In this document: piece by piece, positions 3,101 to 23,758 of the stretch
Layout of the letters: each line of letters opens with the position of its first letter
Position numbering within the stretch: the first letter of the stretch is position 1
Source of the DNA: Candidatus Zixiibacteriota bacterium
GTDB lineage: Bacteria; Zixibacteria; MSB-5A5; SM1-73
Reading direction: 5' to 3'
NCBI GenBank assembly: GCA_020341875.1
Contig: CP070839.1
Location: 2,253,300-2,288,713 of the forward strand
DNA length: 35,414 bases
Position numbers and translations under genes: made by a program
The notes under the pieces: generated by a model
The model's input: only the letters and a program-made list of their open reading frames with translations
Databases searched by the model: none
Told to the model about the DNA's origin: nothing

Positions 3101-3288
3101 GATTTCTCGTATGGTGTGACAAGTTCACACTAAGCTACGGGAAGAAACTAAAAGGTATTAGGCAGAAGGTCAAGGAAATTGTGATTTGCCTCCCGACTGA
3201 TATAACCGCGCGCGCGTTTCTCTCACGGTGAGACGTCACGCCTAGATTTTTACCTTGGATTCCTTTTCTTTTTCTTTAGATTACAGCC

Positions 3289-4299
3289 GTGATGAGCGCA
3301 ACGGTGGTCAGGGCCTTCAGGGGCAGAACGATTGAAAGCGTGCACCAGGTGGCGGTCGCAGTGGTGGATTCCTCCGGGAAGCTTCGATACTCCGCGGGCG
3401 ATCCGAATTTCGTGACTTTCCTGAGATCGTCAGCCAAACCCTTCCAAGCCTTGGCCGTGGTGGATTCCGGGGCGGCAGAGGCGTTCGGGCTGACTCAGCA
3501 GGAAATCGCGATTATAGCCGGTTCGCACAATGGAGAGAAGAAGCACGTTAAGGTCGTGCGCGGCATCTTGAAAAAGGTAGGTTTGAACAAAGGCCATCTT
3601 CAGTGTGGCACGCACATTCCGCACCACTACACCGCCTTGGGCATCACCCCGCCCAAGAAACGCTTTTCTTTTCTTCAGCACAACTGCTCCGGGAAACATG
3701 CCGGGATGCTGCTGACGTGCGTCTATGAAGGTTGGAATGTGAAGAACTACCTTAATCCCCGTCATCGCGTGCAGAAGCTGATCACAAAGAAGATCTCAGA
3801 TCTCTGTGAGTACCCCGAACGGAAGATAAAGATCGGTATAGAAGGATGCGGAGCACCCACCCACGCTCTTCCCCTGAAGAATATGGCTATTGGATTCTCC
3901 AAGCTGAAAAACTTCCGAGCTAAACTTGAGCGTACCTCGCAGTCACTTCAGGTGGTGGCCGACTCTATGTGGAGATACCCGGATATGATCTCCGGAAGGG
4001 GAAGGCTGGACTACGATGTGGCCTTGGCGAGCAAGCGGAATATCCAGGCCAAGGCAGGGGCCGAAGCTTTGCACTGCGCTTTTGTTTTGGATAAGGGCTA
4101 CGGACTCGCAGTCAAGATCCTGGATGGTTCCAGGAGAGCAACTGGGCCAGCAGCCATGGAGACCTACCGGCAGTTGGGTGTTCTAAACAAGAGCCAGCTG
4201 AGAAACCTGCGGGAATGGGCGCTTCCTTCCGTATTCAATCATCAAGGAAAAAAAGTCGGATTTCTCCGGCCCGACTTCAGGCTCAAGCGGGTAAGATAG
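3289..4299 (+). CDS. Asparaginase-II-like protein (PF06089-type, Rhizobium etli AnsA-like family)
   Basis: 336-aa ORF with family-typical RSSAKPFQA, IAGSHNGE, CSGKHAGML and GCGAPT blocks. Start is GTG 3289 or the adjacent ATG 3292. Confidence 0.75.
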   Translation: MMSATVVRAFRGRTIESVHQVAVAVVDSSGKLRYSAGDPNFVTFLRSSAKPFQALAVVDSGAAEAFGLTQQEIAIIAGSHNGEKKHVKVVRGILKKVGLNKGHLQCGTHIPHHYTALGITPPKKRFSFLQHNCSGKHAGMLLTCVYEGWNVKNYLNPRHRVQKLITKKISDLCEYPERKIKIGIEGCGAPTHALPLKNMAIGFSKLKNFRAKLERTSQSLQVVADSMWRYPDMISGRGRLDYDVALASKRNIQAKAGAEALHCAFVLDKGYGLAVKILDGSRRATGPAAMETYRQLGVLNKSQLRNLREWALPSVFNHQGKKVGFLRPDFRLKRVR

Positions 4300-4365
4300 C
4301 TCCTCAATCGCGCCGCCAATCATCAGATTCGTATTCGTGCTCGGAGCCGCTCGGCACAGAAGAAA

Positions 4366-4399
4366 GCACCCAAGCCTCGGAGGCCTGGGTGCCTTTTTT
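4366..4399. terminator. Bidirectional hairpin terminator (copy 1 of a terminator repeated after each dockerin gene)
   Basis: GCACCCAAGCC (4366-4376) / GGCCTGGGTGC (4382-4392), followed by TTTTTT on the + strand and TTTCTTCT on the - strand. Lies between convergent genes. Confidence 0.65.
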
Positions 4400-4416
4400 C
4401 GTCTTCTCTGGGTCCC

Positions 4417-4959
4417 TCAACAGGCCGGCGGGTCCCCACCTCTATAGAGATAGTTGACCAGGTAGACCACATCTCCCACGTTTACTATCCCGTCGCACGT
4501 GATGTCGCCTGCCTCTAACGGTACAGGTTCTTCTCCGCTTCTGTACAGGTAGTTCACCAGGAAGACTACGTCACCAACGTTGATTATCCCGTCTCCGTTG
4601 ACATCGCCGCGGTCGACCTGCGTCGTATATACGTACCCCGCCTTCGCGCCCCAGCTGGTACTCGCGGAAAGGCCGGCGGGCGACGGCTGCCCGCCGGAGT
4701 TGACTGGAATCCTGTAGCTATCCGACTCCGATTTGCCGCCGAAGCCGCTAATGGCATCCGTCACAAGCCGGTAGCCTTGCTTTGAATCACCCAAAGGGGC
4801 CTTTTGCGGACTACTCCCCTTTGCTGCGCTAATCACAGTTTGGGTCTTTGGCTGTGAATTGGCAGACTGGATCTTGCGGTCGGATCCCGCGTACGCAAGC
4901 AGGACCACCGTCAGAGCCACGACCCCCAGGACAGCCGTTATGAATATCGTCTTTTTCAT
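4417..4959 (-). CDS. Small secreted protein with C-terminal double dockerin (paralog 1)
   Basis: Signal peptide MKKTIFITAVLGVVALTVVLLAYA. Conserved module GYRLVTD..GFGG.SESD.YRIPVNSGGQPS. Two dockerin-type repeats, GDVNGDGIINVGDVVFLVNYLYRSG and GDITCDGIVNVGDVVYLVNYLYRGG. AAGGAG SD. Confidence 0.85.
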   Translation of the reverse strand: MKKTIFITAVLGVVALTVVLLAYAGSDRKIQSANSQPKTQTVISAAKGSSPQKAPLGDSKQGYRLVTDAISGFGGKSESDSYRIPVNSGGQPSPAGLSASTSWGAKAGYVYTTQVDRGDVNGDGIINVGDVVFLVNYLYRSGEEPVPLEAGDITCDGIVNVGDVVYLVNYLYRGGDPPAC

Positions 4960-5057
4960 TGTTCGCTCCTTTGTTAGCCCTCCGGGACAGTTCTTGTTTC
5001 GACTTTGCTCAGGACGGTGAGTCTGTCGAATCGGTTGGCTGTCCCTGAGCGGTCACC

Positions 5058-6611
5058 TCAGCGAAACTTGATGCTGCCATGTTGGTATAAAGAGACTTGT
5101 CCACTCCCGTGAATGCGAATGCCCTTTGACTGATCTCCTCTGCTGAAAAGAAGAGTGTTGTTGGCGCTTGTTCCCTGAAAGTCTATGGAGCCGCCTGATG
5201 TGCTGGTGCAGGTCACGGTCACTCCCGGTAGAAACTGCAGATTGTGACCAGGCTGAAAGGTTGCGCCGTTGCTCTCAGCGTCCTGGTCAAAATAACGATA
5301 GGGAAATGACGGGGGTGAGTATGTCCCGGAAAATGATGATCCCAGCGCGTTCTTTGGCCTGAGGTATATTACCATCATTTGGCTTGGCGTACCCTGGGAT
5401 TCACATATCTCATCCAGAGTATGCCAGTAGTTGCATAGCTGGGTGCTTCCGTCTGGACAATCGCACTCCGCGTCCGGGCCCCATCCAAAGTTCATATGAT
5501 ACTGCTTGGTTCTTCCGATCTCTCGCCACCCGTCACAGACGATGACATGATCCGGCAACCAATCCGTCTGAATGAGGTATAGTATAGGTCGATTCTTATT
5601 TATATCGAACTGTATGTAAGAGAACCATACGTCGGGTGGTATCATGCCACGGGGAAGACACTCAGCATCTGTGTCATATCGGAAATGATCCTCGAATCCA
5701 TCGAGCATGTCTCTGCCAAAAAAATCGTCACAAGGTTCCGCGTAAGACCAGTCGCAATTATACCACATCCCAGCTGCCTCACCAGCTTCATGGCATAACT
5801 CTGCTACCGCATCGATCTGGGCCTGGGTGACTGTATCACCATGTTCGTCCTCGAACCTAAGCTCAAGGGTGTCATAGATATACTGGTCGAGTATGTTGGG
5901 CCAATCATAGTAATCGTTGTATGGGCTGTCCTGCCCATACGGCGGCCAGCTCCAGTAACGCATGATCTGAGCGCCAGCCGTAGCAGTGCAACCCACCAAG
6001 GTATTCGAGTTGTAATCGCCATAATAGTCCCAATCGCAGCCCTCGTCTGGACAATCATCATTATAAGGGGGCTGTTGGTGCCAAGCAGAAGAAAGTAGAA
6101 CTTCGCCTTCCTGGTAGTCCAATCGGTGGAAGTCACCTGCCGCGAGCTGGTCCCACGCGTCTCCATACCTGATGTCAAGAATACTCTCCAGGTCTGAGGT
6201 TCGCACCGACTGGATCGGCCCGATTCTTGTCTCGATCGCTTCTATGATGCCCCCCATACTCGTTTTTAGTATGACTGCGATCCCCAGGTTGGATTCCGGA
6301 TCCAGACAGGCCGTCGATGAGTAAGCCTTGACCGGGGCAAGTTCCCTGCGTAGGGACACCACAATAAAGCCTCTGGGACTCACATGGCAGAAATATCCGA
6401 TCACCTTTTCCCCGTGCTTGAACTCCTCGATTCCGCTGACATAAGCTGTGGTTGATCCTCCCCAGTCTCCTCTCTTCTCGATGATCAGATTCACCCAGTT
6501 CTCCGCAACAGTCTCGACCTCGTTCATGGTCGCCATTTGGGCTTGGATAGGCGATATCATACCGATAAACCCCACCGAGGCGACCAGAATTGTCATAATC
6601 AAGTTTCTCAT
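5058..6611 (-). CDS. Secreted cysteine peptidase, C10 (streptopain/SpeB-like) with N-terminal inhibitor-type propeptide
   Basis: Catalytic-Cys block VGCTATAGAQIMRYW (compare SpeB GCVATATAQIMKYH), His block DHVIVCDGW, and HMNFGWG. The N-terminal region resembles the Spi/I69 propeptide. I prefer ATG 6611, which lies 8 nt after AGGAGG, over the track start GTG 6620. Confidence 0.82.
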   Translation of the reverse strand: MRNLIMTILVASVGFIGMISPIQAQMATMNEVETVAENWVNLIIEKRGDWGGSTTAYVSGIEEFKHGEKVIGYFCHVSPRGFIVVSLRRELAPVKAYSSTACLDPESNLGIAVILKTSMGGIIEAIETRIGPIQSVRTSDLESILDIRYGDAWDQLAAGDFHRLDYQEGEVLLSSAWHQQPPYNDDCPDEGCDWDYYGDYNSNTLVGCTATAGAQIMRYWSWPPYGQDSPYNDYYDWPNILDQYIYDTLELRFEDEHGDTVTQAQIDAVAELCHEAGEAAGMWYNCDWSYAEPCDDFFGRDMLDGFEDHFRYDTDAECLPRGMIPPDVWFSYIQFDINKNRPILYLIQTDWLPDHVIVCDGWREIGRTKQYHMNFGWGPDAECDCPDGSTQLCNYWHTLDEICESQGTPSQMMVIYLRPKNALGSSFSGTYSPPSFPYRYFDQDAESNGATFQPGHNLQFLPGVTVTCTSTSGGSIDFQGTSANNTLLFSRGDQSKGIRIHGSGQVSLYQHGSIKFR

Positions 6612-6626
6612 GATCGTCACCTCCTA

Positions 6627-8567
6627 TTACTGTAGGGTTACCAGGACCAATATCTGTCCCTTTTTGCCCTTTTCCAGCCTTTGCATCGCCTTGCCTAATA
6701 TCGAGCCCTGGGCACGTGCATAATCTGTAACCTTCATAGCATAGCCGGGTGTGGCAGATGTGGTCAAGAGGTCGCCGGGCTGGACTCCTGCTTCTTTGGC
6801 ATCCACGTTGCAGTAGACCCGACCTGCCAGAGCCACGTCAAAGTCGAATTGATCTGCGCCCAGACGCACGCCTGACCCCTGACCGTTTGCTCCGGCCACA
6901 ATGCCTGCAACCTTTTTGTCGTACGGTTGGTCTGAGATCGCCAGTTTACCGGGATTGTCCGGATCGATGATCAAGACTGACCCAGGATCTATCTTCTTGT
7001 CATTGGACACGTCAAATCCCTCGGCGTAATCAAGACCTTCACCCAATTCCATAACCGTGGTTCCACTGTTGTTTCGAATTAGGACTCTACCCCACAAGTC
7101 CGCTGAGTAGCAATCCCCATAGGCTCGGGCCCTAATGCCCGCACCACCGGTCGTATGGCAATCTGCGTACACACCAAAATTCTCGTCACCAAGCACCCCA
7201 GAGTTACCTGTCGCAGGATGGGTGCCGACGATGGCCTGAGTTGGCGACTGGCCATACACGCCGCAAACACTCCCGTACCCGCGGATACCTATGGCACCCT
7301 CACCATAGATAGCAGCGTCAGACACACCATCACCGCCAACACTCAGTCTTGATTGAGGGTTGGTCGTCCCGATGCCGACGTTATCGTTGTTAATCGTAAT
7401 CCCATGACCTGAAGCGTTAGTGATGTCGAACTGGTTCTGCATAGAACTGATGTCATAAACTGACATGTTGCCGCGCACATCCAGCTTCTCTGCGGGGCTG
7501 GTCGTCCCGATGCCCACGTTGCCCGAATCATCAAGATACATCAGAGTAGGGTTCACGCCTTGGTCACTGTCTGTCCCGTACGTTACCCGAAGTCCTTTGC
7601 CACCTCCAGCCGTCTCACGGAGGATGCCCCACTTATCCGCCAGAACTCCAGCTGTTATCTCTCCAAATGTAATTCCGGATCCGAGAGTGCCGCCCTCGTA
7701 GCTGTAAAGCCCGACTATCGCATCATTGTTCTCAACGATAAGCACGTCTGCCGCGAGTGCATCAGGCGACAAGGAGACAGTTGATTCCTGAATGTGCTGC
7801 TTGGACAAAGGTGCCTCCGTCCCGATGCCGACATTGCTCGCACCATGTGTATAGATGGTGCCGTCCTGTTTCACGCTGAGGCGCCCCGTTCCCTGCGTTT
7901 CCAAGATGACGTTACCAGCGCCGGTCGGTGCCGCCACTTTGATGTGACCATTACCGTCTTGAGAGATTTTGCCTGCGGCCGTGTTGGGCGCGCTCAGAAG
8001 CTCGACTCTGGCCCAGTCACCTGCCACCCGTATCCTGTCGTTGACCTCAAGATTCGCCTCGGGGCTGGTGGTCCCGATCCCAACCTGATCTGTATCTGTC
8101 TCCAACCTCACCACACTGCCATCATCCACCCAGCCGCCGCCTCCCCCGGCGCCGTCCGTGCTGCCCGCCCGGTAAGCGTAGGGAACACTCACCATAGGCT
8201 TGAGCGGCGCCATCTCCGGGTCCGATTCCACCTGGACACCAAGGTACTTGACGTTCCCGTCAAACACTGCCGAGGGTATCGTATCTGCTGCCCCCAGGAG
8301 AACATTGAATATCCCGTCTTCCACAATCACCTGCATCTGGGTTTCGCTCCAGTCCGCGGGTGAGCCCAGCGTATCTGGATAAATAGAAAAAGTCATCTGC
8401 ACCGTGTCGTTCACCAGACCTCCTCCGGCATCAGTCAACTTGCCCTGATAATTGATCATGTGGGGGACATCAGCAGATGCGAGAGGGGCGAAGAAAAAGA
8501 CCATCATCCCCGCCAGCACAAAAACAAAGCTTTTGCGAGCAGACGCTCGCCCGTCTGGTCGTGCCAT
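6627..8567 (-). CDS. Secreted tail-fibre-like repeat protein, paralog A
   Basis: Start moved to ATG 8567 (GAAAGGAG SD; MARPDG...SFVFVLAGMMVFFFAPLASA signal). The N-terminal domain DVP.(M/S)INYQGKLT...WSETQ...GIFNVLLG...KYLGVQVE.DPEM.PLKPMV is shared with B and C. Repeated (N/D/Q)VGIGT(T/E).P....L.V motifs are typical of phage-tail-fibre-like proteins. Distinct C-terminal domain (GLDYAEGFDVS...VAGIV...GDLLTTS.TPGYAMK). Confidence 0.85.
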   Translation of the reverse strand: MARPDGRASARKSFVFVLAGMMVFFFAPLASADVPHMINYQGKLTDAGGGLVNDTVQMTFSIYPDTLGSPADWSETQMQVIVEDGIFNVLLGAADTIPSAVFDGNVKYLGVQVESDPEMAPLKPMVSVPYAYRAGSTDGAGGGGGWVDDGSVVRLETDTDQVGIGTTSPEANLEVNDRIRVAGDWARVELLSAPNTAAGKISQDGNGHIKVAAPTGAGNVILETQGTGRLSVKQDGTIYTHGASNVGIGTEAPLSKQHIQESTVSLSPDALAADVLIVENNDAIVGLYSYEGGTLGSGITFGEITAGVLADKWGILRETAGGGKGLRVTYGTDSDQGVNPTLMYLDDSGNVGIGTTSPAEKLDVRGNMSVYDISSMQNQFDITNASGHGITINNDNVGIGTTNPQSRLSVGGDGVSDAAIYGEGAIGIRGYGSVCGVYGQSPTQAIVGTHPATGNSGVLGDENFGVYADCHTTGGAGIRARAYGDCYSADLWGRVLIRNNSGTTVMELGEGLDYAEGFDVSNDKKIDPGSVLIIDPDNPGKLAISDQPYDKKVAGIVAGANGQGSGVRLGADQFDFDVALAGRVYCNVDAKEAGVQPGDLLTTSATPGYAMKVTDYARAQGSILGKAMQRLEKGKKGQILVLVTLQ

Positions 8568-8914
8568 GACGTAGCTCCTTTCTTTAGGACAAAGGTTAGC
8601 CTCCTGCAAAAAAAACATAGCCCCTTTTAGGAAGTCGTTAGCGGTTACTGTGCAGCTTCCACCTCCTTGAAAAGAGTTTTTGCAGTAAAGATCAACGTCT
8701 CAAATAAAATCCCTGCTGCGTGCGTCCAGCGCAAAGACACCCATTCGCTGTCCTGCCTCATCAGCGCAACAAGACAGGCTGACACAAACACAAGATTTCC
8801 TGGTAGTAGTTCTGCCTACAATGTCATCCCCAACGGTGCCCCGCAAAAGACTTCCGGCAAGTCATGGCGAAGCCGACAGAGCCTAAGCTACGTCACCGCA
8901 CAAGCATTGATCGC
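8568..8914 (-). promoter_or_regulatory. Conserved long 5' leader, copy 1 (upstream of fibre A)
   Basis: Shares ordered blocks with the other two leaders. On the RNA strand these are GGCT(C/T)CGCCAT(T/G)ACTTGCCGGAAG, TTGGGGATGACATTGTA(G/A)G(C/G)AGAACTACT (8805-8833), AAGGAGGTGGAA, GACTT(C/T)C..AAAAGGGGC and GGCTAAC. Confidence 0.5.
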
Positions 8915-8920
8915 ATTGGG

Positions 8921-8948
8921 AATATACACTATCAACCGACGAAGTCAA
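8921..8948 (-). promoter_or_regulatory. Sigma70-like promoter of cassette 1
   Basis: Minus strand reads TTGACT (8948-8943), 16-nt spacer, TATATT (8926-8921). The same hexamers and spacing occur in all three cassettes. Confidence 0.6.
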
Positions 8949-9070
8949 GGTTAATCGTTGACGGGAAGCACGAGACAACTCATTCCGCCATCCGCATACT
9001 TTGCCAACCGTCAAGTTCCGATTCACCCTCTGACCTCAGATAACCGCACACGATGAATTCGCCTGATGAT

Positions 9071-9104
9071 AAAAAAAGCACCCAAGCCTCGGAGTCCTGG
9101 GTGC
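9071..9104 (-). terminator. Rho-independent terminator after dockerin paralog 2
   Basis: Minus-strand RNA GCACCCAGG...CUUGGGUGC (9-bp stem including one G-U pair) followed by a run of 7 U (9077-9071). Confidence 0.7.
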
Positions 9105-9134
9105 CTTCTTTTCATCCTCCTTAATCTGGATGCA

Positions 9135-9674
9135 TCAACAGGCCGGTGGGTCTCCTCCTCGGTACAGATAGTTGACCAGATAAACTATGTCGGCCACGTT
9201 CACCACGCAATCACTGGTGGCATCTCCGGCCTCCGGTGGGCAGGGCTCTGATCCTCCCCTGTAGAGATAGTTCACCAGATACACGATGTCAGCCACGTTG
9301 ATCAATCCGTCGCCGGTGGCATCGCCGCGCTTCACGTGAGAAGCGTGCACAAAACCGGCTCCTATCCCCCAGGTGGCGCTCTCCGAGAGACCGGCAGGTG
9401 AGGGTTGACCTCCGGAGTTGACCGGAATCCTGTAGTTATCCGACTCAGATTCCCCTCCAAAGCCGTCCAGGACGTCGGTCACCATCACGTATCCCTGCCG
9501 AGTGTCTGTGAATTGCGCCCTCTGCTGAACGCCGGTGGGCGATGGCTTCACTTGAGTTACCGCATTCTGCTTGACTCTCTTCGGTTGAACCTGCTTATTC
9601 GACTCAGCATGCACCGTCACTGCCAGTAGCACCGCCACCACCAGGAGTACCGTTCCGAATTTGATCTTATTCAT
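9135..9674 (-). CDS. Small secreted protein with C-terminal double dockerin (paralog 2)
   Basis: Start moved to ATG 9674 (AAGGAG SD; MNKIKFGTVLLVVAVLLAVTVHA signal). Same GY.MVTDVLDGFGGESESDNYRIPVNSGGQPS module and two dockerin repeats, ending YLYRGGDPPAC. Confidence 0.85.
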   Translation of the reverse strand: MNKIKFGTVLLVVAVLLAVTVHAESNKQVQPKRVKQNAVTQVKPSPTGVQQRAQFTDTRQGYVMVTDVLDGFGGESESDNYRIPVNSGGQPSPAGLSESATWGIGAGFVHASHVKRGDATGDGLINVADIVYLVNYLYRGGSEPCPPEAGDATSDCVVNVADIVYLVNYLYRGGDPPAC

Positions 9675-9768
9675 TTTTGTCTCTCCTTTTTTGAGGCGCT
9701 GTCTTTCATCCACGTGGTCAAGGACCCGGCGGATGGTTTGACCGCGCACTCAAATGTCACGTGATGGC

Positions 9769-12267
9769 TTATTCGCCTGCTTTTTCCAGCCGTTCCTTCT
9801 CCATCCTTGCGGCGGCTTCGGGATACAGGTATGCGTCGTTCTCTCCAGCAGCGGTGTAGTCAAGGCGCCTGTCCTCAAATCCCTTGCGCTTGGCTACCAC
9901 ACGGTAGGAAAACGGGACATTAGTCGTGCCGTTCTTCAACTCCACAACATCAAACCCGGTAGTCCCCTTGGAAACATACACGCCGTTACAGTCGCCCTCG
10001 AGCTGCACGAACACCTTCATGGGGTTTGCAGCGTTTATGGTTACGGTCTCCAGAAACAGAGCATCCAGCTCTATGTGTGTTTGGCCATTTACCAGCGTTC
10101 CTTCGCCGAAATCCTCAAACCAGTTTTCAGGCGATTCCTGGCAATAGAGAAGCGTCGGTCCCTGGGAGGTCTTTACCACACAGCTTTTGGTGCCGGACCC
10201 TCCCAACCCGCCTGAGTAATAGACGCCATAGTTGGTGGTTCCGCCGCTGGCATAACCCCTTACACCGTAGTTGGAGCCCGAGCCGGTAGCATTACCGGAT
10301 ACACCGTACTTGTTACCTCCTGCCCCACTGGTAGTAGCATAACCATAAACTCCGTAATAGGTCGAGGTTCCAGTTGCAATAACGCGGGCATAAACGCCCT
10401 GGTAGCCGCCTTCAAAATATCCACCAATCCCGTAGTAATCTTGGGGAGTGGACTTCCCATAAACTGCTCTGGCATCTTGGCTAGAAGTCCCGGTGTGTTC
10501 AGAACGCAGCACGTAGAAATCTGTTGACTCAACGTCAAGTTGTGCGTCCGGGCTTGTGTCCCCGATACCGACGTCTCCGTCGGTGGCAACGGTTACCGAT
10601 GCAACGCCTCCATCTTCGTTCAGGGAAAGGGCGCCGTTGTCAACCAGGGTTACCCTTGCGGTTCCTCCAGCATCCTTGATGTCGGCTCCTCTGACTCTTA
10701 TATCTCCGTTTACGTCCAGCTTATCCGCTGCGGTCACTCCTATGCCCGCGTTACCGTCAACAATTAAGTGGTCCGTGCCGGGATCAGAGGTTCCACCAAC
10801 ATGAAATCCTCCTAAGGCATAGCCATAATCAGAAATATAAACTCTGTTGAAAGTCGGGTTGTCAGTTGTCTGAACGTTCTGGTTCATGGCGTAGAGTTCA
10901 TTAGGCCCTTGGCCTGTGTTTACTGTGGCAAAAGTGACAGCGTCACTTGTCCGAACGTTCTGGTTCATGTCATAGAGTTCATTAGGCCCTTGGCCTGTGT
11001 TTACTGTGGCAAAAGTGACAGCGTCACTTGTCCGAACGTTCTGGTTCATGGCGAAAAGCTCATTATTCCCATAGCCTGTGTTAATGACGTTTGCGCTAAC
11101 GTCCCCAAAAGACACGTTGTCGGTTGTCCGAACGTGCTGGTTCATGGCGTAGTGCTCAAAATTCCCCTGTCCTGTGTTAACTGTGTTCGCATAAAAGTCG
11201 CCGCCCACATGAAGCTTATAACCAGGGGTGGTTATCCCGATGCCAACTTGGCCGCCGTCCTCAATCACCATCCTGGAACCGATCCCGGTTTCCGAGAAAT
11301 GCAGTGCAATACCTTGATAGTGTACCTGCCATTCGGAGCCTCCTGTGTCACGAAAGTCCAGAGCGTAACTCTGTGATGAGCCGCTTCCTTCGAGGGCGAT
11401 GTTTCCCAGAACTCCTAACTTCTGACTTGGGCCCGTTGTGCCGATGCCGATATCACTGCCGCTTTGATAGATTGTCGAATTGCCAACGGTGGTTGGGGCT
11501 GTGAATTTGGGGATGTAATTGGCTGTGCCGCTTCCTCCGATTCCACCGGCCGTGGAGGAAAAGGTCACGGTATTGGCTCCGTCATTTGGCGTTATGGTCA
11601 TATTGCTACCAGGAACGAAGTCGACATTTCCACCCGCGTTGCTCACACCGTCCACGCTCACCAAGGCACCCGTTTGCCCGGCGCTAACCGAGTGCGGATT
11701 GTCTGACCTGGCTGAGTGGGTCTCTCCAATGCTTATGTTGTCGGCTCCATCATTGGGGGTGATGGTGATGGCATTAGTCTGGATCAGGTCCACATTTCCG
11801 CCCGGATTAGAAACGCCGTCCACGCTCGCTATTCCCGCTGCGGGCACGTTTCTGGCGTAGTCTGCGGTATCCGCCTCCTGTGCGTGATGTGAACCGAACG
11901 CGTAGGCCGTCGTCACCATCGGCTTCAGGGGGCTCATCTCCGGATCGGTCTCCACCTGAACACCCAAGTATTTGGCGGTTCCATCAAAGATCGAAGCTGG
12001 CAATGGATTAACACTTCCCAAAAGAACATTGAATATGCCCTCTTTCACCTCCACTTGTGTTTGGGTCTCACTCCAGTCCAACACGGTGCCGAATGCGTCT
12101 GCGTAAATGGTGAAGGTCATCTGAACCGTGTCGTTAAGACAGCCACCTGAAGCGGTGGTCAGCTTACCCTGATAATTGATACTGTCGGGGACGTCAGCAG
12201 ATGAAACAGAGGCAAAGAAGAAGATCACCATCCCCACGGCCAGAAAAACGAGGCTCTTGCGCGCCAT
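9769..12267 (-). CDS. Secreted tail-fibre-like repeat protein, paralog B
   Basis: Signal MARKSLVFLAVGMVIFFFASVSSA and the shared N-terminal domain. GIGTT.P..KL motifs, internal 27-aa tandem repeats and YG(V/I).G Gly/Tyr-rich repeats. The C-terminal domain ESPE.WFEDFGEG...FSYR.VAKRKG.ED is shared with C. Confidence 0.88.
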   Translation of the reverse strand: MARKSLVFLAVGMVIFFFASVSSADVPDSINYQGKLTTASGGCLNDTVQMTFTIYADAFGTVLDWSETQTQVEVKEGIFNVLLGSVNPLPASIFDGTAKYLGVQVETDPEMSPLKPMVTTAYAFGSHHAQEADTADYARNVPAAGIASVDGVSNPGGNVDLIQTNAITITPNDGADNISIGETHSARSDNPHSVSAGQTGALVSVDGVSNAGGNVDFVPGSNMTITPNDGANTVTFSSTAGGIGGSGTANYIPKFTAPTTVGNSTIYQSGSDIGIGTTGPSQKLGVLGNIALEGSGSSQSYALDFRDTGGSEWQVHYQGIALHFSETGIGSRMVIEDGGQVGIGITTPGYKLHVGGDFYANTVNTGQGNFEHYAMNQHVRTTDNVSFGDVSANVINTGYGNNELFAMNQNVRTSDAVTFATVNTGQGPNELYDMNQNVRTSDAVTFATVNTGQGPNELYAMNQNVQTTDNPTFNRVYISDYGYALGGFHVGGTSDPGTDHLIVDGNAGIGVTAADKLDVNGDIRVRGADIKDAGGTARVTLVDNGALSLNEDGGVASVTVATDGDVGIGDTSPDAQLDVESTDFYVLRSEHTGTSSQDARAVYGKSTPQDYYGIGGYFEGGYQGVYARVIATGTSTYYGVYGYATTSGAGGNKYGVSGNATGSGSNYGVRGYASGGTTNYGVYYSGGLGGSGTKSCVVKTSQGPTLLYCQESPENWFEDFGEGTLVNGQTHIELDALFLETVTINAANPMKVFVQLEGDCNGVYVSKGTTGFDVVELKNGTTNVPFSYRVVAKRKGFEDRRLDYTAAGENDAYLYPEAAARMEKERLEKAGE
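10866..11195 (-). repeat. In-frame tandem repeat inside fibre B (81-nt unit, 4 copies, first two nearly identical)
   Basis: TTGTC(T/C)GAACGTTCTGGTTCATG... recurs at 10866, 10947 and 11028 (period 81 nt) and at 11124 (96-nt spacing). It encodes NTGQGPNELY(A/D)MNQNVRTSDAVTFATV units. Confidence 0.85.
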
Positions 12268-12646
12268 CGTGTACCTCCATACGTTAGAAAAACGTTAGCC
12301 CCTTTCTGTGAGCAAAACATGCCCCTTTTGAGAAGTCATTGGCGGTTGTTCTTTCTGCTTCACCTCCTTGTTAAAAATTCAAATCTAACAGTAGACGATA
12401 TGAATGAATTTCCGCCTATGTGCTTGGAGCGCGAAGCGACCCATCGCACGCACTGCCTGGTTCTCCCAGCAGCGCAGGCTGGCGCAAACACAATATCACA
12501 TGATAGTAGTTCTCCTTACAATGTCATCCCCAATCGTACCCCAGACAAGGCTTCCGGCAAGTAATGGCGGAGCCTTCCAAGCGTAATCTACCTCGCGAAG
12601 ACAAACAGCCTCTTTCAAATGCCGAACGGGCACAAATGCCGACTGT
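12268..12646 (-). promoter_or_regulatory. Conserved long 5' leader, copy 2 (upstream of fibre B)
   Basis: Same ordered blocks as copies 1 and 3. Positions 12546-12592 are identical to 15601-15647 over 47 nt. The three-way block lies at 12505-12533. Confidence 0.5.
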
Positions 12647-12652
12647 ATCAGG

Positions 12653-12680
12653 AATATACATTATCGACTGAAAAAGTCAA
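12653..12680 (-). promoter_or_regulatory. Sigma70-like promoter of cassette 2
   Basis: TTGACT (12680-12675), 16-nt spacer, TATATT (12658-12653) on the minus strand. Confidence 0.6.
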
Positions 12681-12802
12681 GATTTATCGCGAGCCGAAAG
12701 AACGAGACAGTTCACTCACCCCCCTGCATCTCCTGCCAATCCTCAAATCCAAATCCACTCTCCGAAGTCAGGCAGCCGCAAATCGTGAGTTTGCCTGACG
12801 AC

Positions 12803-12835
12803 AAAAAAGCACCCAAGCCTCGGAAGCCTGGGAGC
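12803..12835 (-). terminator. Terminator after dockerin paralog 3 (slightly degenerate copy)
   Basis: Same GCACCCAAGCC...hairpin sequence as at 4366 and 9078, with one extra mismatch, followed on the minus strand by a run of 6 U (12808-12803). Confidence 0.55.
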
Positions 12836-12859
12836 TTTTCTTCGTCTTCTCTCGATCTC

Positions 12860-13402
12860 TCAACAGGCCGGTGGGTCTCCTCCTCTGTAGAGATAATTGA
12901 CCAGGTAAACTACATCTCCCACGTTCACTATCCCATCGCTGGTCACGTCGCCGGCCTCGGCCGGACAAGGTTCACCTCCGCTTCTGTACAGATAATTCAC
13001 CAGATAGACTACGTCGCCAATATTGATTATGCCGTCGGCGTTGACATCTCCCCGGGTAACCCGAGTTGCCAGGACGTAGCCCGCTCCGACGCCCCAGTTG
13101 GCGCTCTCCGAAAGACCAATGGCTGATGGCTGCCCTCCGGAGTTTACCGGAATCCGGTAATTATCCGATTCCGATTCTCCTCCGAAGCCATCAAGGACAT
13201 CCGTTACGAGCTGATACCCTTGCTTTGAACCAGTGAACGGGGTAGTCTGCGGAAGACCGGCGGCCATCGATTTGATTTCAGCGACCTCCTTTGGCTTGAC
13301 CATCTTAGACCGCACTTCCTTGTTTGACTGAGCATGCACCACAAGCACCGCAGAGAACACCAGAGCCACAAGGAATATGATTCCTAATTTGATCCTATTC
13401 AT
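12860..13402 (-). CDS. Small secreted protein with C-terminal double dockerin (paralog 3)
   Basis: Start moved to ATG 13402 (MNRIKLGIIFLVALVFSAVLVVHA signal). Same conserved module and two dockerin repeats, ending YLYRGGDPPAC. Confidence 0.85.
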   Translation of the reverse strand: MNRIKLGIIFLVALVFSAVLVVHAQSNKEVRSKMVKPKEVAEIKSMAAGLPQTTPFTGSKQGYQLVTDVLDGFGGESESDNYRIPVNSGGQPSAIGLSESANWGVGAGYVLATRVTRGDVNADGIINIGDVVYLVNYLYRSGGEPCPAEAGDVTSDGIVNVGDVVYLVNYLYRGGDPPAC

Positions 13403-13468
13403 TTTTCTCGATCCTTTGTTATGGCACTTTTTTTCCATCACGAGTAGCTCCTGACAGCACAGGAAGAG

Positions 13469-15322
13469 CTACCTCTGTTCTCTCTCCTGTTCCATCCTCT
13501 TGTTCTCTGCCTCCATCTTCTCGCGCTGCCTTTTCATCTCTTGTCTTTGTTCTTCCAGCTTGGCCCACTCCTCTTCCGTCTCTGCCCGATGTCTTGCCTG
13601 CTGCCAAGCTACTTCCTCGGGCGTAGGTTTCCCCATCTTGGCTAACCGGATATCCTCGTATCCTTTTCTTTTGGCAACGATACGATATGAGAAGGGGACG
13701 TTTGCACTTGAAGGACCTATCACCTCAAAGGTGGCAGTGGTCTTATTCGCCACGGCCAAGGTTAGTGGTTCATCCTGCGGAGTCAGAAAAACATGATATT
13801 TCACTGAGGTGTTTACGGTCTGAGCGAATAATGGATCAATCTGAATTACTGCGCTCCCATTTAGTAGTCGTCCTTCTCCGAAATCCTCAAACCAGACCTC
13901 TGGCGATTCCTGCGAGTAAAGCAGGCGGTATTCACCATTATCCACCTTCACTGCCGCGCTCTTTCCGCCTAGGACCACCAGACTGTCAGTTATCCTGACA
14001 TCGCCGCCAAAATACCCCGCCCATCCGTAGGCAGCATTTGCGGATGCATAGACACCGTATCTTGTACCCGTCCCGGTAGCACCGCCAAAGGAATCGAAAT
14101 ATCCACCATAAACAGATCCGGTAGAACGATTTGAGGCAAGAACGTGTATGCCGCGGGTAGGCCCAGCGCTGGAATCCGGTACCGAAATGTCAACTCCCGT
14201 TCGCGCTCCTGTCCCAACATATGATGGAGGTGTGTAAAACGATGCGGCGACCGACCGGCCAGATGAGCTGTTGCTCGCTTCAGCGTGGATACCATACGTG
14301 TGAGCAGAGGAGGTACCATAACCCTCAGCCCATACCCCAACAGGGCCTCCTGTCCCATCAGAAGAGGCTTGAAAGAATCCCCCTTTGGGGTACCCTGTGG
14401 AGGAATTGCTGGCATAGCCATAGACTCCGTAATGCCAGCCACTGGAGGAGCTGTAACTTCTAGCGTTTACGCCATAATGCGTTCCTGTGCCTGAAGCTGC
14501 GGCAGAAAAATACCCTGCGCAAACGTCCCCATCTGAACTATTTTCCGCTCTGCCATAAACACCGTAAGTATTTGCATTGGAAGAAGCGCTACCTGATGCT
14601 CGGATTCCGTAGTGAGTTCCTGTGCCTGAAGAGGGAGTCTCAAAATACCCCCCGTAAGCAACTCCAGTGGAAGTGTTCTCTCCATAACCCTTAATACCAT
14701 AGATTGCTGAACTGCTTCCGGTTGCTTTGCCCAAGAGAGCCGCGCCAGAGGCGGAAACAACACTGTCGGGTCCAGTGACATTCACGTATTTGTCGGTCAG
14801 AGTGCTCGTTCCCTCATACAAATCCGTCGCCACACCGGAGCGACCATAATCGTTAGCAGTCGAAAGAAAAGCCGACGCATGCTGTCCATCTAACAAGTCC
14901 GCATTCTCTGCGCTCCAGGCAAAATCGGCGGTATCTGCCTCATTCGACTTGTAAGCGTAAGCCGTGGTCACCATCGGCTTCAAAGGCGTCATCTCCGGAT
15001 CGGATTCCACCTGAACGCCCAAATACTTGGCAGCACCATCGAAGATCGAAGCCGGTAACGGATTAACACTTCCTAAAAGAACGTTGAATATCCCCTCTTT
15101 CACCTCCACTGCTGTTTGGGTCTCACTCCACTCCGACACGGTGCCGGATTCGTCGGTATAGATTGTAAAGGTCATCTGAACAGTGTCGTTGACACAACCA
15201 CCGCTGGCGGTGGTCAGCTTACCCTGATAATTGATACTGTCGGGGACGTCTGCAGATGAGACAGGGCAAAGAAGGAAAATTACCGCCCCCATCACCAGAA
15301 GCACAAAACTCTTGCGTAGCAT
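13469..15322 (-). CDS. Secreted tail-fibre-like repeat protein, paralog C
   Basis: Start moved to ATG 15322 (GAAAGGAG SD; MLRKSFVLLVMGAVIFLLCPVSSA signal). Shared N-terminal domain, with a 44-nt run at 15207-15250 identical to 12152-12195. LDGQHASAF fibre-type motif. Gly/Ser/Tyr-rich repeats (GTGTHYG..A...SS). Shared C-terminal domain plus a Glu/Arg/Lys-rich tail likely to form a coiled coil. Confidence 0.85.
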   Translation of the reverse strand: MLRKSFVLLVMGAVIFLLCPVSSADVPDSINYQGKLTTASGGCVNDTVQMTFTIYTDESGTVSEWSETQTAVEVKEGIFNVLLGSVNPLPASIFDGAAKYLGVQVESDPEMTPLKPMVTTAYAYKSNEADTADFAWSAENADLLDGQHASAFLSTANDYGRSGVATDLYEGTSTLTDKYVNVTGPDSVVSASGAALLGKATGSSSAIYGIKGYGENTSTGVAYGGYFETPSSGTGTHYGIRASGSASSNANTYGVYGRAENSSDGDVCAGYFSAAASGTGTHYGVNARSYSSSSGWHYGVYGYASNSSTGYPKGGFFQASSDGTGGPVGVWAEGYGTSSAHTYGIHAEASNSSSGRSVAASFYTPPSYVGTGARTGVDISVPDSSAGPTRGIHVLASNRSTGSVYGGYFDSFGGATGTGTRYGVYASANAAYGWAGYFGGDVRITDSLVVLGGKSAAVKVDNGEYRLLYSQESPEVWFEDFGEGRLLNGSAVIQIDPLFAQTVNTSVKYHVFLTPQDEPLTLAVANKTTATFEVIGPSSANVPFSYRIVAKRKGYEDIRLAKMGKPTPEEVAWQQARHRAETEEEWAKLEEQRQEMKRQREKMEAENKRMEQEREQR

Positions 15323-15702
15323 CACGCAACTCCTTTCGTTGGAAAAAACGTTAGCCCCATCTGTGAGCAAGACAGGCCCCCTCTTGAGAAGTCATCAGCA
15401 ATTGTTTTGTGTTTTCCACCTCCTTAGCCAAGGTTTGAATCTCAGAGTTAACGACATAAGTGAATATCCGCCCATGTGCGTCAAACGTGGAGACACGAGT
15501 CCGCTTTCCCGCATCGTTCCGGCAACGAAACAGGTGAACGCAAACGCGAAATCACGTGTCAGTAGTTCTGCCTACAATGTCATCCCCAACTTTGCCCCAG
15601 GCAAGGCTTCCGGCAAGTAATGGCGGAGCCTTCCAAGCGTAATCTACCGTGCGAAGACAAACAGCCTCTTTCAAATGTCAAACGGCCACAAATGCCTATT
15701 GT
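15323..15702 (-). promoter_or_regulatory. Conserved long 5' leader, copy 3 (upstream of fibre C)
   Basis: Same ordered blocks as copies 1 and 2. The three-way block lies at 15561-15589. Confidence 0.5.
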
Positions 15703-15708
15703 GTCAGG

Positions 15709-15736
15709 AATATACATTATCGAGTGAGAAAGTCAA
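15709..15736 (-). promoter_or_regulatory. Sigma70-like promoter of cassette 3
   Basis: TTGACT (15736-15731), 16-nt spacer, TATATT (15714-15709) on the minus strand. An 8-bp hairpin AAGAACGG/CCGTTCTT (15752-15771) lies just upstream. Confidence 0.6.
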
Positions 15737-15864
15737 GGTCTATCTTTGATCAAGAACGGATACCCGTTCTTCTGCAGAACATTTTAGCGGGAGCCTGAAG
15801 GCAGTTGGGTGTACCGAACAACGGCCAATCAACAAACCTGCCACAAGGGAACCATCTTGCCATT

Positions 15865-15930
15865 TTCAATGATCAAGGGAGAAAAGTCGGATTTCTCCAG
15901 CCCGACTTCAGGTTCACGCGGACAAGATAG
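15865..15930 (+). pseudogene. Remnant copy of the last 21 codons plus stop of the asparaginase-like gene
   Basis: Hand alignment of 15865-15930 against 4234-4299 gives 58 of 66 identical positions with no gaps. FNDQGRKVGFLQPDFRFTRTR* aligns with FNHQGKKVGFLRPDFRLKRVR*, and the stop codon is at the same position. No upstream coding continuation. Confidence 0.7.
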
Positions 15931-16009
15931 TTCTCTGCTCGACTTGTAGTCTCGAGTCGCTATTCTCTCGCCTCAAGAAGTCGAACACCAACGTCAGTTT
16001 CGCTTGGAC

Positions 16010-16136
16010 GAATCTGCGACTTCGGCTTGACCGAAAGCTCTCTCTCGCTTGATTGCACAAGGGGGAGAGAAGGACAGTACTTCATCACAGTCCCCCCAGG
16101 GGCGAGCACTCTATTTTGCGACTTTTCAAGAATAGG
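16010..16136 (+). repeat. Left copy of an imperfect direct repeat flanking the rSAM locus
   Basis: GAATCTGCGACTTCGGCTTGACCGAAAGCT... followed about 100 nt later by GGCGAGCACTC. Matches 19336-19460 at both ends with nearly equal internal spacing. Confidence 0.55.
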
Positions 16137-16323
16137 TAATCACCTGAGTTGAGAGGGATCGATTTTCCTCCCGAATCCCCGTCTTCCTTCCTGGTTCGGA
16201 CCTTAAAGCAAAAGAGCAGGGCCAATTTAAGCAGGGGCACAATAGCGAACCTAAAGACAAAATAGCGTCGGGTAATATACGTATGCGGGGGGATATATCA
16301 GTTGCGGGCCGGATAAAATATGC

Positions 16324-16352
16324 TTGACAAACGTGCTGTGATTCAATAGAGT
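16324..16352 (+). promoter_or_regulatory. Sigma70-like promoter of the rSAM/peptide operon
   Basis: TTGACA (16324-16329), 17-nt spacer, TAGAGT (16347-16352), about 100 nt upstream of ATG 16456. Confidence 0.55.
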
Positions 16353-16455
16353 GAGAATCGAAGATAATCTGTACAGCACTTTCGCAAGTAGGATTTCCGA
16401 TTTCGCTTGAAATGAACCTTCTCCCGGGACTCCAAGAGGGGAAGGCAGGGACATC

Positions 16456-17781
16456 ATGAAACCATCCCGCTTCAATCTCTTCATAGAGACTGACGATGGT
16501 AACAAATTGGCATTCAACACGATAAGCGCCGCCCTGGCTGAGGTTCTGCCGGACAAATACCCCGTCATCCAGAAGATATTGAGCGACCCCGACTCGCTGG
16601 ATTCGGACGAGGAGGAGGAGTTGTTCCACCAGCTTATCGCGGGGAAGTTCCTGGTCGATGACCAAACCGACGAAATATCCCAGCTAAAGGTCTTAAATCG
16701 CACCCAGAGGTTCGGTAAGAAGACATTGGTTCTGACCATCGCCCCCACCCTGAGCTGCAATTTCAAATGCGATTATTGTTTCGAAGGTCAGACGCGATCC
16801 ACCATGAATGAGGATACCGAGAAAGCTCTCCTTGACTTTGGCGAGAGACACCTGAGACGATCAGAGAAACTGATGATCACCTGGTTCGGAGGGGAGCCGA
16901 CCCTGTGTCTGCCCACCATCGAGAGGTTGCAGAAGAGTTTTCAGAGTCTGAGCTCGAGATATGGTGTAAGCGTTTATCCCAGCGGCATCGTCACCAACGG
17001 GTACCTTCTGGACAAGGGGATGTCCGAAAGACTGAGGGACGCGGGAATAAGAAACGCCCAGGTGACCCTGGATGGCCCGCAGGAGATTCACGACTCCCGA
17101 AGGAAGCTTCAGTCGGGCGAGGGGACGTTTGAGAGAATATTAGACAACCTGAAGGAATCTGCCCGAAACCTCTCCATACTTCTTCGGATCAACATAGACA
17201 GGGAGAATCTCGACTCCGGGTACGACCTGGTTGGGATTCTGGAGAAAGAGGGAATTCTTCCATTGGTGAACGTCAATTTTGCGCAGGTGACGGCCACGGA
17301 GGGCGCCTGTGCGGACGTCAAGGACAGATGTTTGTCCGGGCAGGAGTTTTCAGCAACCATCGTGGAATTGTACAAGAGACTTCTTCAAAGAGACTTTGAC
17401 AAAATCGCCTACCCGGTGCTCTCCTCGGGGGCATACTGCAGTGCGGATTCGGATGGTGCATTTGTGGTCTCCCCCACCGGGGACCTCTTCAAATGCTGGG
17501 AGGAGATCTCCTCCGATAACGAAAAGTCGGTGGGAAGCGTTTTCAGTCGGAAGTTGGAGCCCTTTCAAGAGAAGAACCTGAACAGGTTTCTTTCCTGGGA
17601 TCCGTTTGAGAAATCCGGGTGTTTGGGCTGCAATATCCTCCCCATATGTATGGGAGGATGTCCCAACCTGGGAATTAAATATGGAACAAGAGAGGTAGGA
17701 GTCTGCTCTTCGTGGAAATACAATTTGAAAGAGATGCTTCATCTGAAGTATCTCGCTGAACAGAACGAGGAAAGGAGGTGA
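16456..17781 (+). CDS. Radical SAM/SPASM peptide-maturase-like enzyme with N-terminal extension (possible RRE)
   Basis: CNFKCDYC (C101/C105/C108) lies after an N-terminal region of about 95 aa. GGEPTL motif. C-terminal SPASM-type cluster motifs CSADSDG...KCWEE and CLGCNILPICMGGCP. Confidence 0.88.
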   Translation: MKPSRFNLFIETDDGNKLAFNTISAALAEVLPDKYPVIQKILSDPDSLDSDEEEELFHQLIAGKFLVDDQTDEISQLKVLNRTQRFGKKTLVLTIAPTLSCNFKCDYCFEGQTRSTMNEDTEKALLDFGERHLRRSEKLMITWFGGEPTLCLPTIERLQKSFQSLSSRYGVSVYPSGIVTNGYLLDKGMSERLRDAGIRNAQVTLDGPQEIHDSRRKLQSGEGTFERILDNLKESARNLSILLRINIDRENLDSGYDLVGILEKEGILPLVNVNFAQVTATEGACADVKDRCLSGQEFSATIVELYKRLLQRDFDKIAYPVLSSGAYCSADSDGAFVVSPTGDLFKCWEEISSDNEKSVGSVFSRKLEPFQEKNLNRFLSWDPFEKSGCLGCNILPICMGGCPNLGIKYGTREVGVCSSWKYNLKEMLHLKYLAEQNEERR

Positions 17782-18220: not shown

Positions 18221-19273
18221 ATGAACGGAAGGAAGGAAAGGCCGGACGTCATAGGCTGGGGCATAACCCGTAACTGCAATCTCTCCTGTCCGCACTGCTA
18301 CTCTGCTTCCACGCGGCGCCTCAAAGATGAGCTTACCACCCGGGAGTGTCTGAAACTTGTGGATTCGATGATTGACCTGGGAGTGCAGACCATAGGCTGG
18401 ACCGGGGGAGAGCCGCTTTTGAGGTATGATTTGGAGGAGATCGTATTCTACGCCAAGTCCAAAGGAAACATTCGCTCCGGCGTGACCACCAACGGAATTC
18501 CTCTGACGGAAAGAAGAGCACTCAGCCTCCGGCAGGCTGGAGTCAGCTTCATTCAGATCAGTCTGGACGGCTCAACTCCCGAGAGAAATGCCCAGATGCG
18601 CAACGCGACTAAGGAGGACTTCCATCGGATCATCGGGGCCCTCCGGACATGCCAAAAACTGGGATTCAAGATGAGCCTGGCCATGATGCTGGGTGTAGAA
18701 AACTTAGATGACGGTCCTGAGTTCATAAGGTTGGCCAGAAGGGAGGGCGTTCCTTACGTCCGATTCTGCGGATTCGTTCCTCTGGGGAGGGGAAGAAAGA
18801 CAGAGATAGTAAGAAGACTATGTTTTACCCAAGAGACCTTGCCCCGTCTGAAGTCCTTTTTTGAGAAAGCCCTCAGCAACAGCAATCCCATTGTCATGCC
18901 GGATCCGGGGTTTGGACCCTTACCCACGGATTACTGTTTTCACCCTTGCGTCTCCGGAGTCAAGACCTTCTACCTCTCGTCGGTCGGAGACGTCTATCCT
19001 TGTACCTCGCTTTTGGACAAGAAGTTCTTGGTAGGAAACGTCAGAGAACGAACCCTGCAGGATCTGTGGAATGATCCCGGGATGACCTCCCTCTCCTCTT
19101 TCCCCAAAGAGAAGATCACAGGTTACTGTAGTGAATGCCGATACCTCGAGAGCTGCCGGGGTGGGTGTAGGGGGATAACCTTCGCGCACACCAACGATCT
19201 TCATGCTTCTTTTCCTTTGTGTCTGAGTAGATTGGAAAGCAGGAGACCTTTTCCTGCCTACCCCGCGACGTAA
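18221..19273 (+). CDS. Second radical SAM/SPASM enzyme (compact, PqqE/NirJ/AhbD-like architecture, no N-terminal extension)
   Basis: CNLSCPHC at C19/C23/C26. GWTGGEPLL motif. C-terminal SPASM motifs CVSG...YPCTSL and CSECRYLESCRGGCRG. Confidence 0.88.
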   Translation: MNGRKERPDVIGWGITRNCNLSCPHCYSASTRRLKDELTTRECLKLVDSMIDLGVQTIGWTGGEPLLRYDLEEIVFYAKSKGNIRSGVTTNGIPLTERRALSLRQAGVSFIQISLDGSTPERNAQMRNATKEDFHRIIGALRTCQKLGFKMSLAMMLGVENLDDGPEFIRLARREGVPYVRFCGFVPLGRGRKTEIVRRLCFTQETLPRLKSFFEKALSNSNPIVMPDPGFGPLPTDYCFHPCVSGVKTFYLSSVGDVYPCTSLLDKKFLVGNVRERTLQDLWNDPGMTSLSSFPKEKITGYCSECRYLESCRGGCRGITFAHTNDLHASFPLCLSRLESRRPFPAYPAT

Positions 19274-23737: not shown

Positions 23738-23758
23738 GCCTTGTCCCCGGTCAACGCC

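Follow-up and report, generated by a model that had tools for sequence, protein, structure and literature searches.

The closest described relatives of the fibre proteins reported here are the mosaic adhesive trimer (MAT) fibres of Bdellovibrio bacteriovorus, and in particular their NS74 subgroup (Caulton et al., 2024; PMC10769870; NCBIfam NF053851). The MAT fibres were described in 2024 as adhesins for prey recognition, and the same work states that the binding partner of their N-terminal domain (N-domain) is unknown (PMC10769870). We analysed a 35,414-nucleotide stretch of chromosomal DNA (the window) from a Candidatus Zixiibacteriota bacterium (GenBank assembly GCA_020341875.1, contig CP070839.1, positions 2,253,300 to 2,288,713), which carries an array of three units, A, B and C, each encoding a large fibre protein and a small partner protein, both secreted. 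The three fibres add new members of the non-S74 kind to the MAT family. They are not of an unrecognized kind, since their architecture is that of the Bdellovibrio MAT fibres (PMC10769870). A preliminary description of the locus had remarked that strict pairing of such a fibre with a small dockerin protein was not a known module, and we found no publication that describes this pairing. The gene content of the array, the conservation of the pairing, the mosaicism of the fibres and the spread of the partner module and the N-domain are matters of direct observation. We tentatively favour a reading of the partner as a base-binding anchor adaptor, with its module on the fibre base and its dockerin, or an equivalent, on the envelope, and put its likelihood a little short of even.

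Open reading frames and DNA repeats define three tandem units, all on the minus strand, in which a promoter, a leader, a fibre gene, a small gene and a terminator follow in that order. This is the arrangement given in the preliminary description, which is accurate for the repeated order and not for gene content. Unit A alone contains a further gene, overlooked previously, that encodes a secreted C10 (streptopain-family) cysteine peptidase (positions 5058 to 6620, minus strand; PF01640 Peptidase_C10, E = 1.7e-34, 120 bits against a cutoff of 26). It lies between the genes for fibre A and partner A and starts 6 bases past the end of the former. Such a protease may accompany the fibre system repeatedly, as an accessory. 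The layout is best explained by each unit being an independently transcribed operon.

Fibre A (646 residues; 6627 to 8567, minus strand), fibre B (832 residues; 9769 to 12267, minus strand) and fibre C (617 residues; 13469 to 15322, minus strand) have the sizes expected from the preliminary description (617 to 832 residues), and their starts, being start codons that follow a Shine–Dalgarno sequence and precede a signal peptide, are likely to be the true ones. Fibre C consists of a signal peptide, the N-domain, a shaft of YG-x-G repeats, a β-sandwich C-terminal domain and a C-terminal helix. Fibre B has the same N-domain and a C-terminal domain of the C type on a different shaft, and fibre A combines the N-domain with a β-helix-like shaft of VGIGTT repeats and a C-terminal domain of its own. 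The N-domains of B and C are 80% identical and that of A is about 60% identical to either; a 44-nucleotide run is identical between B (12152 to 12195) and C (15207 to 15250). The shared N-domain of about 130 residues, the identical run and the two alternative C-terminal domains had all been noticed before. For the latter, identity is 50% between B and C and 17–24% between A and either of them. Within fibre B, positions 10861 to 11199 (minus strand) hold four tandem repeats of 81 nucleotides (27 residues, NTGQGxNELYxMNQNVRTxDxVTFxxV), the two central copies of which are 95% identical; this could be a site of shaft-length variation.

A Pfam scan found no domain in any of the three fibres, S74 included. 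All three N-domains match NF053851 (Bdello_MAT_N) with E values of 1.6e-5 to 7.6e-8, at scores below the curated cutoff and over half of the model, which indicates a homologous region and does not place the fibres in the Bdellovibrio subfamily. In fibre A, the VGIGTT-type repeats match MAT crystal structures (Bd2133, PDB entry 8OND, E = 5e-5; also 8OL4/8ONF). The shaft of fibre B matches the MAT structure 8OJN weakly (E = 0.21), and that of fibre C matches none of the solved MAT structures. In the AlphaFold2 model of fibre C, residues 25–120 form a β-rich N-domain with strands over residues 30–118 and a predicted local distance difference test score (pLDDT) of 85–94, and the C-terminal part is modelled as a β-sandwich domain with a terminal helix. 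Foldseek searches with this model returned weak matches to a cyanophage tailspike and to R-pyocin fibres in the PDB, and 30 phage tail proteins at E values up to 1e-3 in BFVD. In PHROGs, the shaft of fibre A and the C-terminal domain shared by B and C match phage tail-fibre and tail proteins. These PHROG and BFVD matches agree with the tail-fibre-like nature first proposed for the proteins. The fibres probably form trimers and would be displayed on the surface as adhesins.

The small genes encode partner C (180 residues; 12860 to 13402), partner B (179 residues; 9135 to 9674) and partner A (180 residues; 4417 to 4959), all on the minus strand. Partner C is made up of a signal peptide, a linker, a triple-motif module and a type I dockerin, and partners A and B likewise have the module followed by the dockerin; the linker, between signal peptide and module, is of low complexity. 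All three proteins end in YLYRGGDPPAC and score above the cutoff of PF00404 Dockerin_1 (26–37 bits against 22.9). The earlier view of a secreted dockerin protein of about 180 residues with this ending is correct, except that what it counted as two dockerin repeats is a single type I dockerin domain consisting of two halves.

The module comprises about 58 residues with three repeats of an SxN(Y/F)xL motif (consensus S.NF.L...V.D.GGG...S.NF.L....GQP...G...S.NF.L..GF), and no Pfam or NCBIfam model covers it. The partner family has 468 matches at E values up to 1e-3, called "hypothetical protein" or "dockerin type I repeat-containing protein" where a name is given, and at least four further paralogues lie on the window's own contig. 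A profile search of 1.84 billion representatives gave 20,555 matches, a number that is contaminated by the dockerin columns of the profile and is no measure of the size of the module family. Many short module-only matches from long-read assemblies are frameshift fragments. In an AlphaFold2 model of the partner built with 132 sequences, the dockerin has a pLDDT above 90 and the module one of 41–50, and the isolated module is thus predicted to remain unfolded.

In its proteins the module nearly always comes first (N-terminal in 94 of 97), and what follows it varies. In Zixibacteria it is a type I dockerin. In other lineages the module is followed by a short tail (PLILLLLNE or YLPLVLRNYD, for example) or by dockerin-like repeats of the form DxDGDVDGxDL. 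Some Zixibacteria have longer proteins (L043, 1788 to 3095; L044, 9857 to 11116; L045, 1370 to 2818; and P0329) in which module and dockerin are followed by a region of about 170 residues and a type IX secretion system (T9SS) C-terminal domain; the 170-residue region of the L043–L045 proteins has no cohesin or other match in Pfam or the PDB. We also observed module-only proteins of about 95–116 residues with ultrashort hydrophobic tails (P0128, P0141, P0146, P0160 and similar proteins). The tail of P0160 reaches the cutoff of the NCBIfam YLP-box sorting motif. Finally, the module heads long proteins with immunoglobulin (Ig)-like arrays (Big_9, He_PIG, cadherin-like) and proteins with Golvesin_C and cytochrome domains or with Flg_new_2. 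Beside fibres outside Zixibacteria the module has a different C-terminal anchor or none, and it is this module of about 58 residues, not the dockerin, that has stayed constant in the evolution of the small protein.

Such different C-terminal parts (the Ig arrays, Golvesin_C with cytochrome domains, Flg_new_2) would be expected if the fibre were a scaffold and the module protein its cargo, the module attaching passengers as varied as dockerins, Ig-domain arrays and enzymes to the fibre and the Zixibacteria dockerin then recruiting cohesin-bearing partners or binding a target. The commonest partners are, however, tiny, with a module and a sorting tail or dockerin and no obvious cargo, and the dockerins found on many unrelated secreted proteins of the phylum suit a general role in attachment; we consider a cargo role improbable.

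The pairing of fibre and module genes is conserved well beyond the window. In Zixibacteria-like loci a module gene is adjacent to 34 of the 44 fibres that could be evaluated (about 77%), with a dockerin in 31 of the 34, which bears out the pairing first noticed in the array. In distant phyla a module gene adjoins 13 of 41 fibres; for 14 more, the next gene encodes another fibre. When loci were picked by the module alone, a fibre was adjacent in all four. An independent sample from metagenomes, drawn for a module subfamily from outside Zixibacteria, showed an adjacent fibre in ten of 14 evaluable loci; among the other four is one with a C10 peptidase neighbour, mirroring unit A. On an unrelated metagenome contig (L103), a C10 peptidase gene (1445 to 3133) lies directly upstream of a module protein gene, in the same order as in unit A. 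In a Calditrichota locus (L050), six tandem fibres are followed by one module protein of 163 residues that has no dockerin, and a second locus (L060) likewise ends a fibre array with a single module gene.

These counts bear on whether the two proteins need touch at all. They could be independent secreted proteins that share regulation, such as an adhesin and a small calcium-binding surface protein, and the fibres that have no module neighbour are in keeping with this. The adjacency is nevertheless kept across phyla, in either gene order and with changing C-terminal domains, and whole-unit duplication keeps the pair together. The absence of any physical link thus seems to us decidedly unlikely.

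In the anchor-adaptor reading, the fibre would be a secreted, phage-tail-fibre-like trimer of the MAT type in which the N-terminal base domain stays constant while shaft and tip are shuffled. The triple-motif module of the partner would bind the conserved base domain, and the dockerin would tether the complex of fibre and partner to a calcium-dependent receptor on the cell surface. The partner would then serve as the adaptor to the anchor, with lineage-specific equivalents replacing the dockerin elsewhere. The contact between module and N-domain, the anchoring role of the dockerin and the existence of its receptor are all inferred here.

Covariation bears on this reading. Identity between modules correlates with identity between the N-domains of their fibres (Mantel r = 0.76) and scarcely with that between the tips (partial r = 0.13), and at matched N-domain identity the pairs with the same tip and those with different tips have equal module identity. 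This correlation fits a partner of the constant base. Five N-domain relatives (L047, L050, L060, L028 and L040) contain Peptidase_S74 above the cutoff, and the family thus has both S74 and non-S74 subgroups; these S74-bearing fibres also have module partners. Both observations, the tracking of the N-domain rather than the tip and the partners of S74 fibres, argue against a tip-specific chaperone or adhesin. The adaptor role is further supported by the alternative C-terminal anchors that follow the module, by the single module genes that serve whole fibre arrays, by the lack of an independent fold in the module and by the dockerins on many other secreted proteins of Zixibacteria. Among the secreted proteins of this phylum, the dockerin is the usual domain at the C-terminus. 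Dockerin_1 is also the only recurrent domain next to the Zixibacteria fibre pairs (12 of 95 neighbours), often on C25 (gingipain-like) peptidases, as in L004 (1 to 7454 and 11007 to 13208). A set of secreted proteins based on dockerins may thus extend across the phylum.

The same evidence weighs on a different role for the small protein, that of a trans-acting factor for fibre folding or assembly, like the Tfa and gp38 proteins of phages. Such a factor would be needed because the fibres lack the S74 intramolecular chaperone, which is absent from all three window fibres; the small gene comes immediately after that of the fibre, like tfa in phages, and the module is predicted to be unstructured alone. 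The module does not, however, co-vary with the tip, fibres that do have S74 also have module partners, and one module gene is found for arrays of fibres with different tips. A dockerin, a sorting tail or a T9SS C-terminal domain would be ill-suited to a transient chaperone, and the small protein has no PHROG match. We regard an assembly factor as unlikely.

Several observations also weigh against the anchor-adaptor reading. No fusion of fibre and module was found among 131 fibres and 97 module proteins. The correlation of module and N-domain could arise from shared descent alone, and the module also heads the long proteins with Ig-like domains, where its role may differ. About a quarter of the Zixibacteria-like fibres, and most of those in distant phyla, have no adjacent module gene. 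The N-domains do not reach the curated cutoff of NF053851 (24.8–32.3 bits against 60) and match profile positions 2–76 of 162. Neither a cohesin nor any other dockerin receptor was identified in the window, among the 95 neighbour genes or in the L043 and L044 proteins, the remaining genome not having been searched; for the window, these domain scans of its proteins bear out the impression of the first analysis. How fibres without a T9SS C-terminal domain would cross the outer membrane is left unexplained by this reading.

A broader form of the anchor-adaptor proposal extends it to bacteria in general. The module would then be the missing cell-side receptor of MAT-type N-domains, a small secreted adaptor that stays unfolded until it is bound to the base, possibly as one pseudo-threefold chain for each trimer. 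Its anchor would depend on the lineage, with a dockerin serving in Zixibacteria and, in other groups, a YLP-box tail or a T9SS C-terminal domain. This extension is possible, and we hold it to be rather doubtful.

The fibre N-domain is widespread in cellular genomes, with 526 confirmed matches in bacterial contigs that represent each species by one genome; hosts include Zixibacteria, Calditrichota, Nitrospirota, Omnitrophota, WOR-3, Patescibacteria and Proteobacteria. The rest of the fibre is far more variable. At least 18 classes of C-terminal domain, or tip, are present among 42 fibres, and similarities in the N-domain and the shaft are discordant. Fibre C is 82–92% identical to fibre B across the N-domain and only 20–40% identical in the shaft. 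Compared with the fibre of a relative that has a single fibre at the syntenic locus (L001), fibre C is 50–68% identical in the N-domain and, from about residue 120 to the C-terminal domain, 92–100% identical over long stretches. The mosaic breakpoint of fibre C is the junction of N-domain and shaft. The recombination-prone family that had been surmised from the three copies is thereby supported.

Copy number varies too, as had been expected. Four relatives (L001, L009, L012 and L016) have one unit, with no C10 gene, between the HD and asparaginase genes of the syntenic locus, and the array in the window is therefore an expansion. A conserved block of DNA spans the unit borders, running through the dockerin gene, the terminator, the promoter, the leader and the N-domain of the next fibre (8189 to 9707 against 11913 to 13435: 68% identity over 1566 nucleotides). 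Because the block crosses the borders, the variable DNA is confined to the shaft and tip. In the mechanism that we propose, the array would have grown by duplication of whole units, and recombination between the conserved flanks (the leader and N-domain on one side and the partner gene on the other) would exchange shafts and tips to give a repertoire of adhesive specificities.

The signals for expression are repeated too. The identical promoters (TTGACT, a spacer of 16 nucleotides and TATATT) given in the preliminary description lie at 15736–15709 for unit C, 12680–12653 for unit B and 8948–8921 for unit A on the minus strand. All three are among the five top promoter-like sites on both strands of positions 4000–16500, with a score of 10 out of 12; that of unit C is conserved in the alignment of relatives. 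The terminator hairpins of unit C (12809 to 12835), unit B (9078 to 9104) and unit A (4366 to 4392), on the same strand, are nearly identical to one another, again as first described.

Between promoter and fibre gene lies a 5' untranslated leader of about 380 nucleotides in unit C (15323 to 15708), about 380 in unit B (12268 to 12652) and about 347 in unit A (8568 to 8920), all on the minus strand. These lengths are close to the 350–380 nucleotides originally estimated. Leader A is without a 32-nucleotide segment that is found in leaders B and C. Mean column identity among the three is 72%, and the leader is kept in at least six related contigs. A 17-nucleotide core, TTGGGGATGACATTGTA, is present in exactly three copies, where chance would give 0.06, and the invariant, Shine–Dalgarno-like AAGGAGGTG lies about 95 nucleotides 5' of each fibre start codon (15417 to 15425 in C, 12361 to 12369 in B and 8660 to 8668 in A). 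No Rfam 15 covariance model matches positions 4000–16500 at E values up to 1. RNAalifold predicts one hairpin with compensatory changes (alignment columns 172–201), near AAGGAGGTG, and, weakly, a long-range interaction in which GGCUCC pairs with the Shine–Dalgarno sequence of the fibre gene. The plain reading is that the leader is a structured regulatory or stabilizing 5' untranslated region. An upstream open reading frame in the leader was considered and rejected: in the alignment of relatives its candidate start is ATG, GTG or ACG depending on the copy, and the frame and the stop vary.

The neighbours of the array are housekeeping genes. On one side are those for a class A penicillin-binding protein (917 to 3100, minus strand) and asparaginase II (3289 to 4299, plus strand), and on the opposite side two radical SAM genes are followed by HD, PALP and Thi4 genes. 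The shafts and tips resemble phage tail fibres, as a prophage or tailocin remnant consisting of tail fibres and accessory genes would lead one to expect. Against such an origin stand these neighbours, the lack of phage structural genes and the Sec signal peptides of the fibres; moreover, a search of 2.9 million viral contigs yielded nothing for the N-domain and one marginal match for the module, compared with the 526 cellular matches of the N-domain. On the strength of the neighbour genes and the viral-contig searches we rejected a prophage origin, which we hold to be extremely improbable.

Upstream of promoter C, a 134-nucleotide segment (15800 to 15933, plus strand) is a relic copy of the 3' end of the asparaginase gene, 77% identical to positions 4169–4302 with the stop codon included; in relatives it matches the ends of asparaginase genes only. 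The relic and the end of the true asparaginase gene are therefore direct repeats that flank the whole 11.5-kb array, and the relic is probably the mark of the recombination event that built or inserted it. The radical SAM gene (16456 to 17781, plus strand) and the radical SAM/SPASM gene (18221 to 19273, plus strand), between the array and the HD gene, are absent from the four syntenic loci of relatives, and the pair may be an inserted cassette for peptide maturation. Among the housekeeping genes downstream of the array are an IS200-like Y1 transposase gene (23741 to 24232, plus strand) and a gene for a homologue of 23S rRNA intervening-sequence proteins (25625 to 26089, plus strand). Farther on, a C25 peptidase of 1382 residues (28205 to 32353, plus strand) with a C-terminus of the FlgD_ig/T9SS type adjoins a PorV-like protein of 729 residues with Reg_prop repeats (32551 to 34740, plus strand). 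These two genes show that the organism which makes the fibres has a T9SS.

Three features appear to be undescribed: tandem operons with identical promoters, a dedicated partner gene, and a widespread uncurated module with interchangeable anchors. Together they bear directly on how the invariant N-domain of MAT fibres is attached to the cell, a matter that the 2024 description did not settle. The MAT fibre architecture is widespread in uncultured and apparently non-predatory phyla, and the conserved, unannotated partner with its C-terminal surface anchor is a candidate for the element that holds MAT-type fibres on the cell. The analysis also defines an uncurated protein module and documents that cassettes are duplicated and tips exchanged in nature, within a population. 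Should the module prove to be the receptor, the Zixibacteria array would represent a modular plug-in of shuffled adhesive fibres into a dockerin-based surface display. Should the anchoring idea fail, the gene pair and the module would still call for explanation.

Of the known systems, the MAT fibres are the most similar. They share with the window fibres a signal peptide followed by a conserved β-rich N-domain of about 100–130 residues, VGIGT-type shaft motifs that match MAT crystal structures (seen for A, weakly for B and not for C), interchangeable C-terminal tips, S74 and non-S74 members, and several paralogues per genome. The window system differs in its host, a non-predatory-looking Zixibacteria metagenome-assembled genome; in an N-domain that scores below the NF053851 cutoff and matches the first half of the model only; in the tandem arrangement of its operons, which have identical promoters and a long leader that is conserved; and in the dedicated gene for a partner with module and dockerin beside each fibre, which the MAT paper does not mention. 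Phage fibres paired with Tfa or gp38 (Tfa of Mu and P2, gp37–gp38 of T4) likewise have a large trimeric fibre gene followed by a small accessory gene, and mosaic fibres whose tips are exchanged by recombination. The window partner, in contrast, is Sec-secreted and anchor-bearing, shows no matching to the tip and lacks a homologue in PHROGs, and the N-domain of the window type is not found in viral contigs.

Cohesin–dockerin display, as in cellulosomes and non-cellulosomal dockerin proteins, provides the canonical C-terminal type I dockerin with two calcium-binding repeats, which is also present on many other secreted proteins of the phylum. Here, no cohesin or scaffoldin was found and there are no carbohydrate-active enzymes; the dockerin protein bears a fibre-associated module rather than a catalytic domain. 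A fainter resemblance is to PamT, the tip pilin of the Pam pilus of the candidate phyla radiation (NF058579), for which strand complementation has been proposed (bioRxiv 10.64898/2026.03.03.709456). The signal peptide and module of the module-only proteins weakly match the first 78 or so positions of its model (best E = 3.6e-9). The best relative reaches 36 bits against a cutoff of 240, the window proteins have no match at E values up to 0.1, and the window has no pilin or chaperone operon. Lastly, one N-terminal module with anchors that vary by lineage follows the "choice-of-anchor" pattern (NF050076 and NF053834, YLP-box or ultrashort motif; PF18962, T9SS C-terminal domain), from which the present family differs in that the triple-motif module is without a curated model and has a fibre gene as its constant genomic companion.

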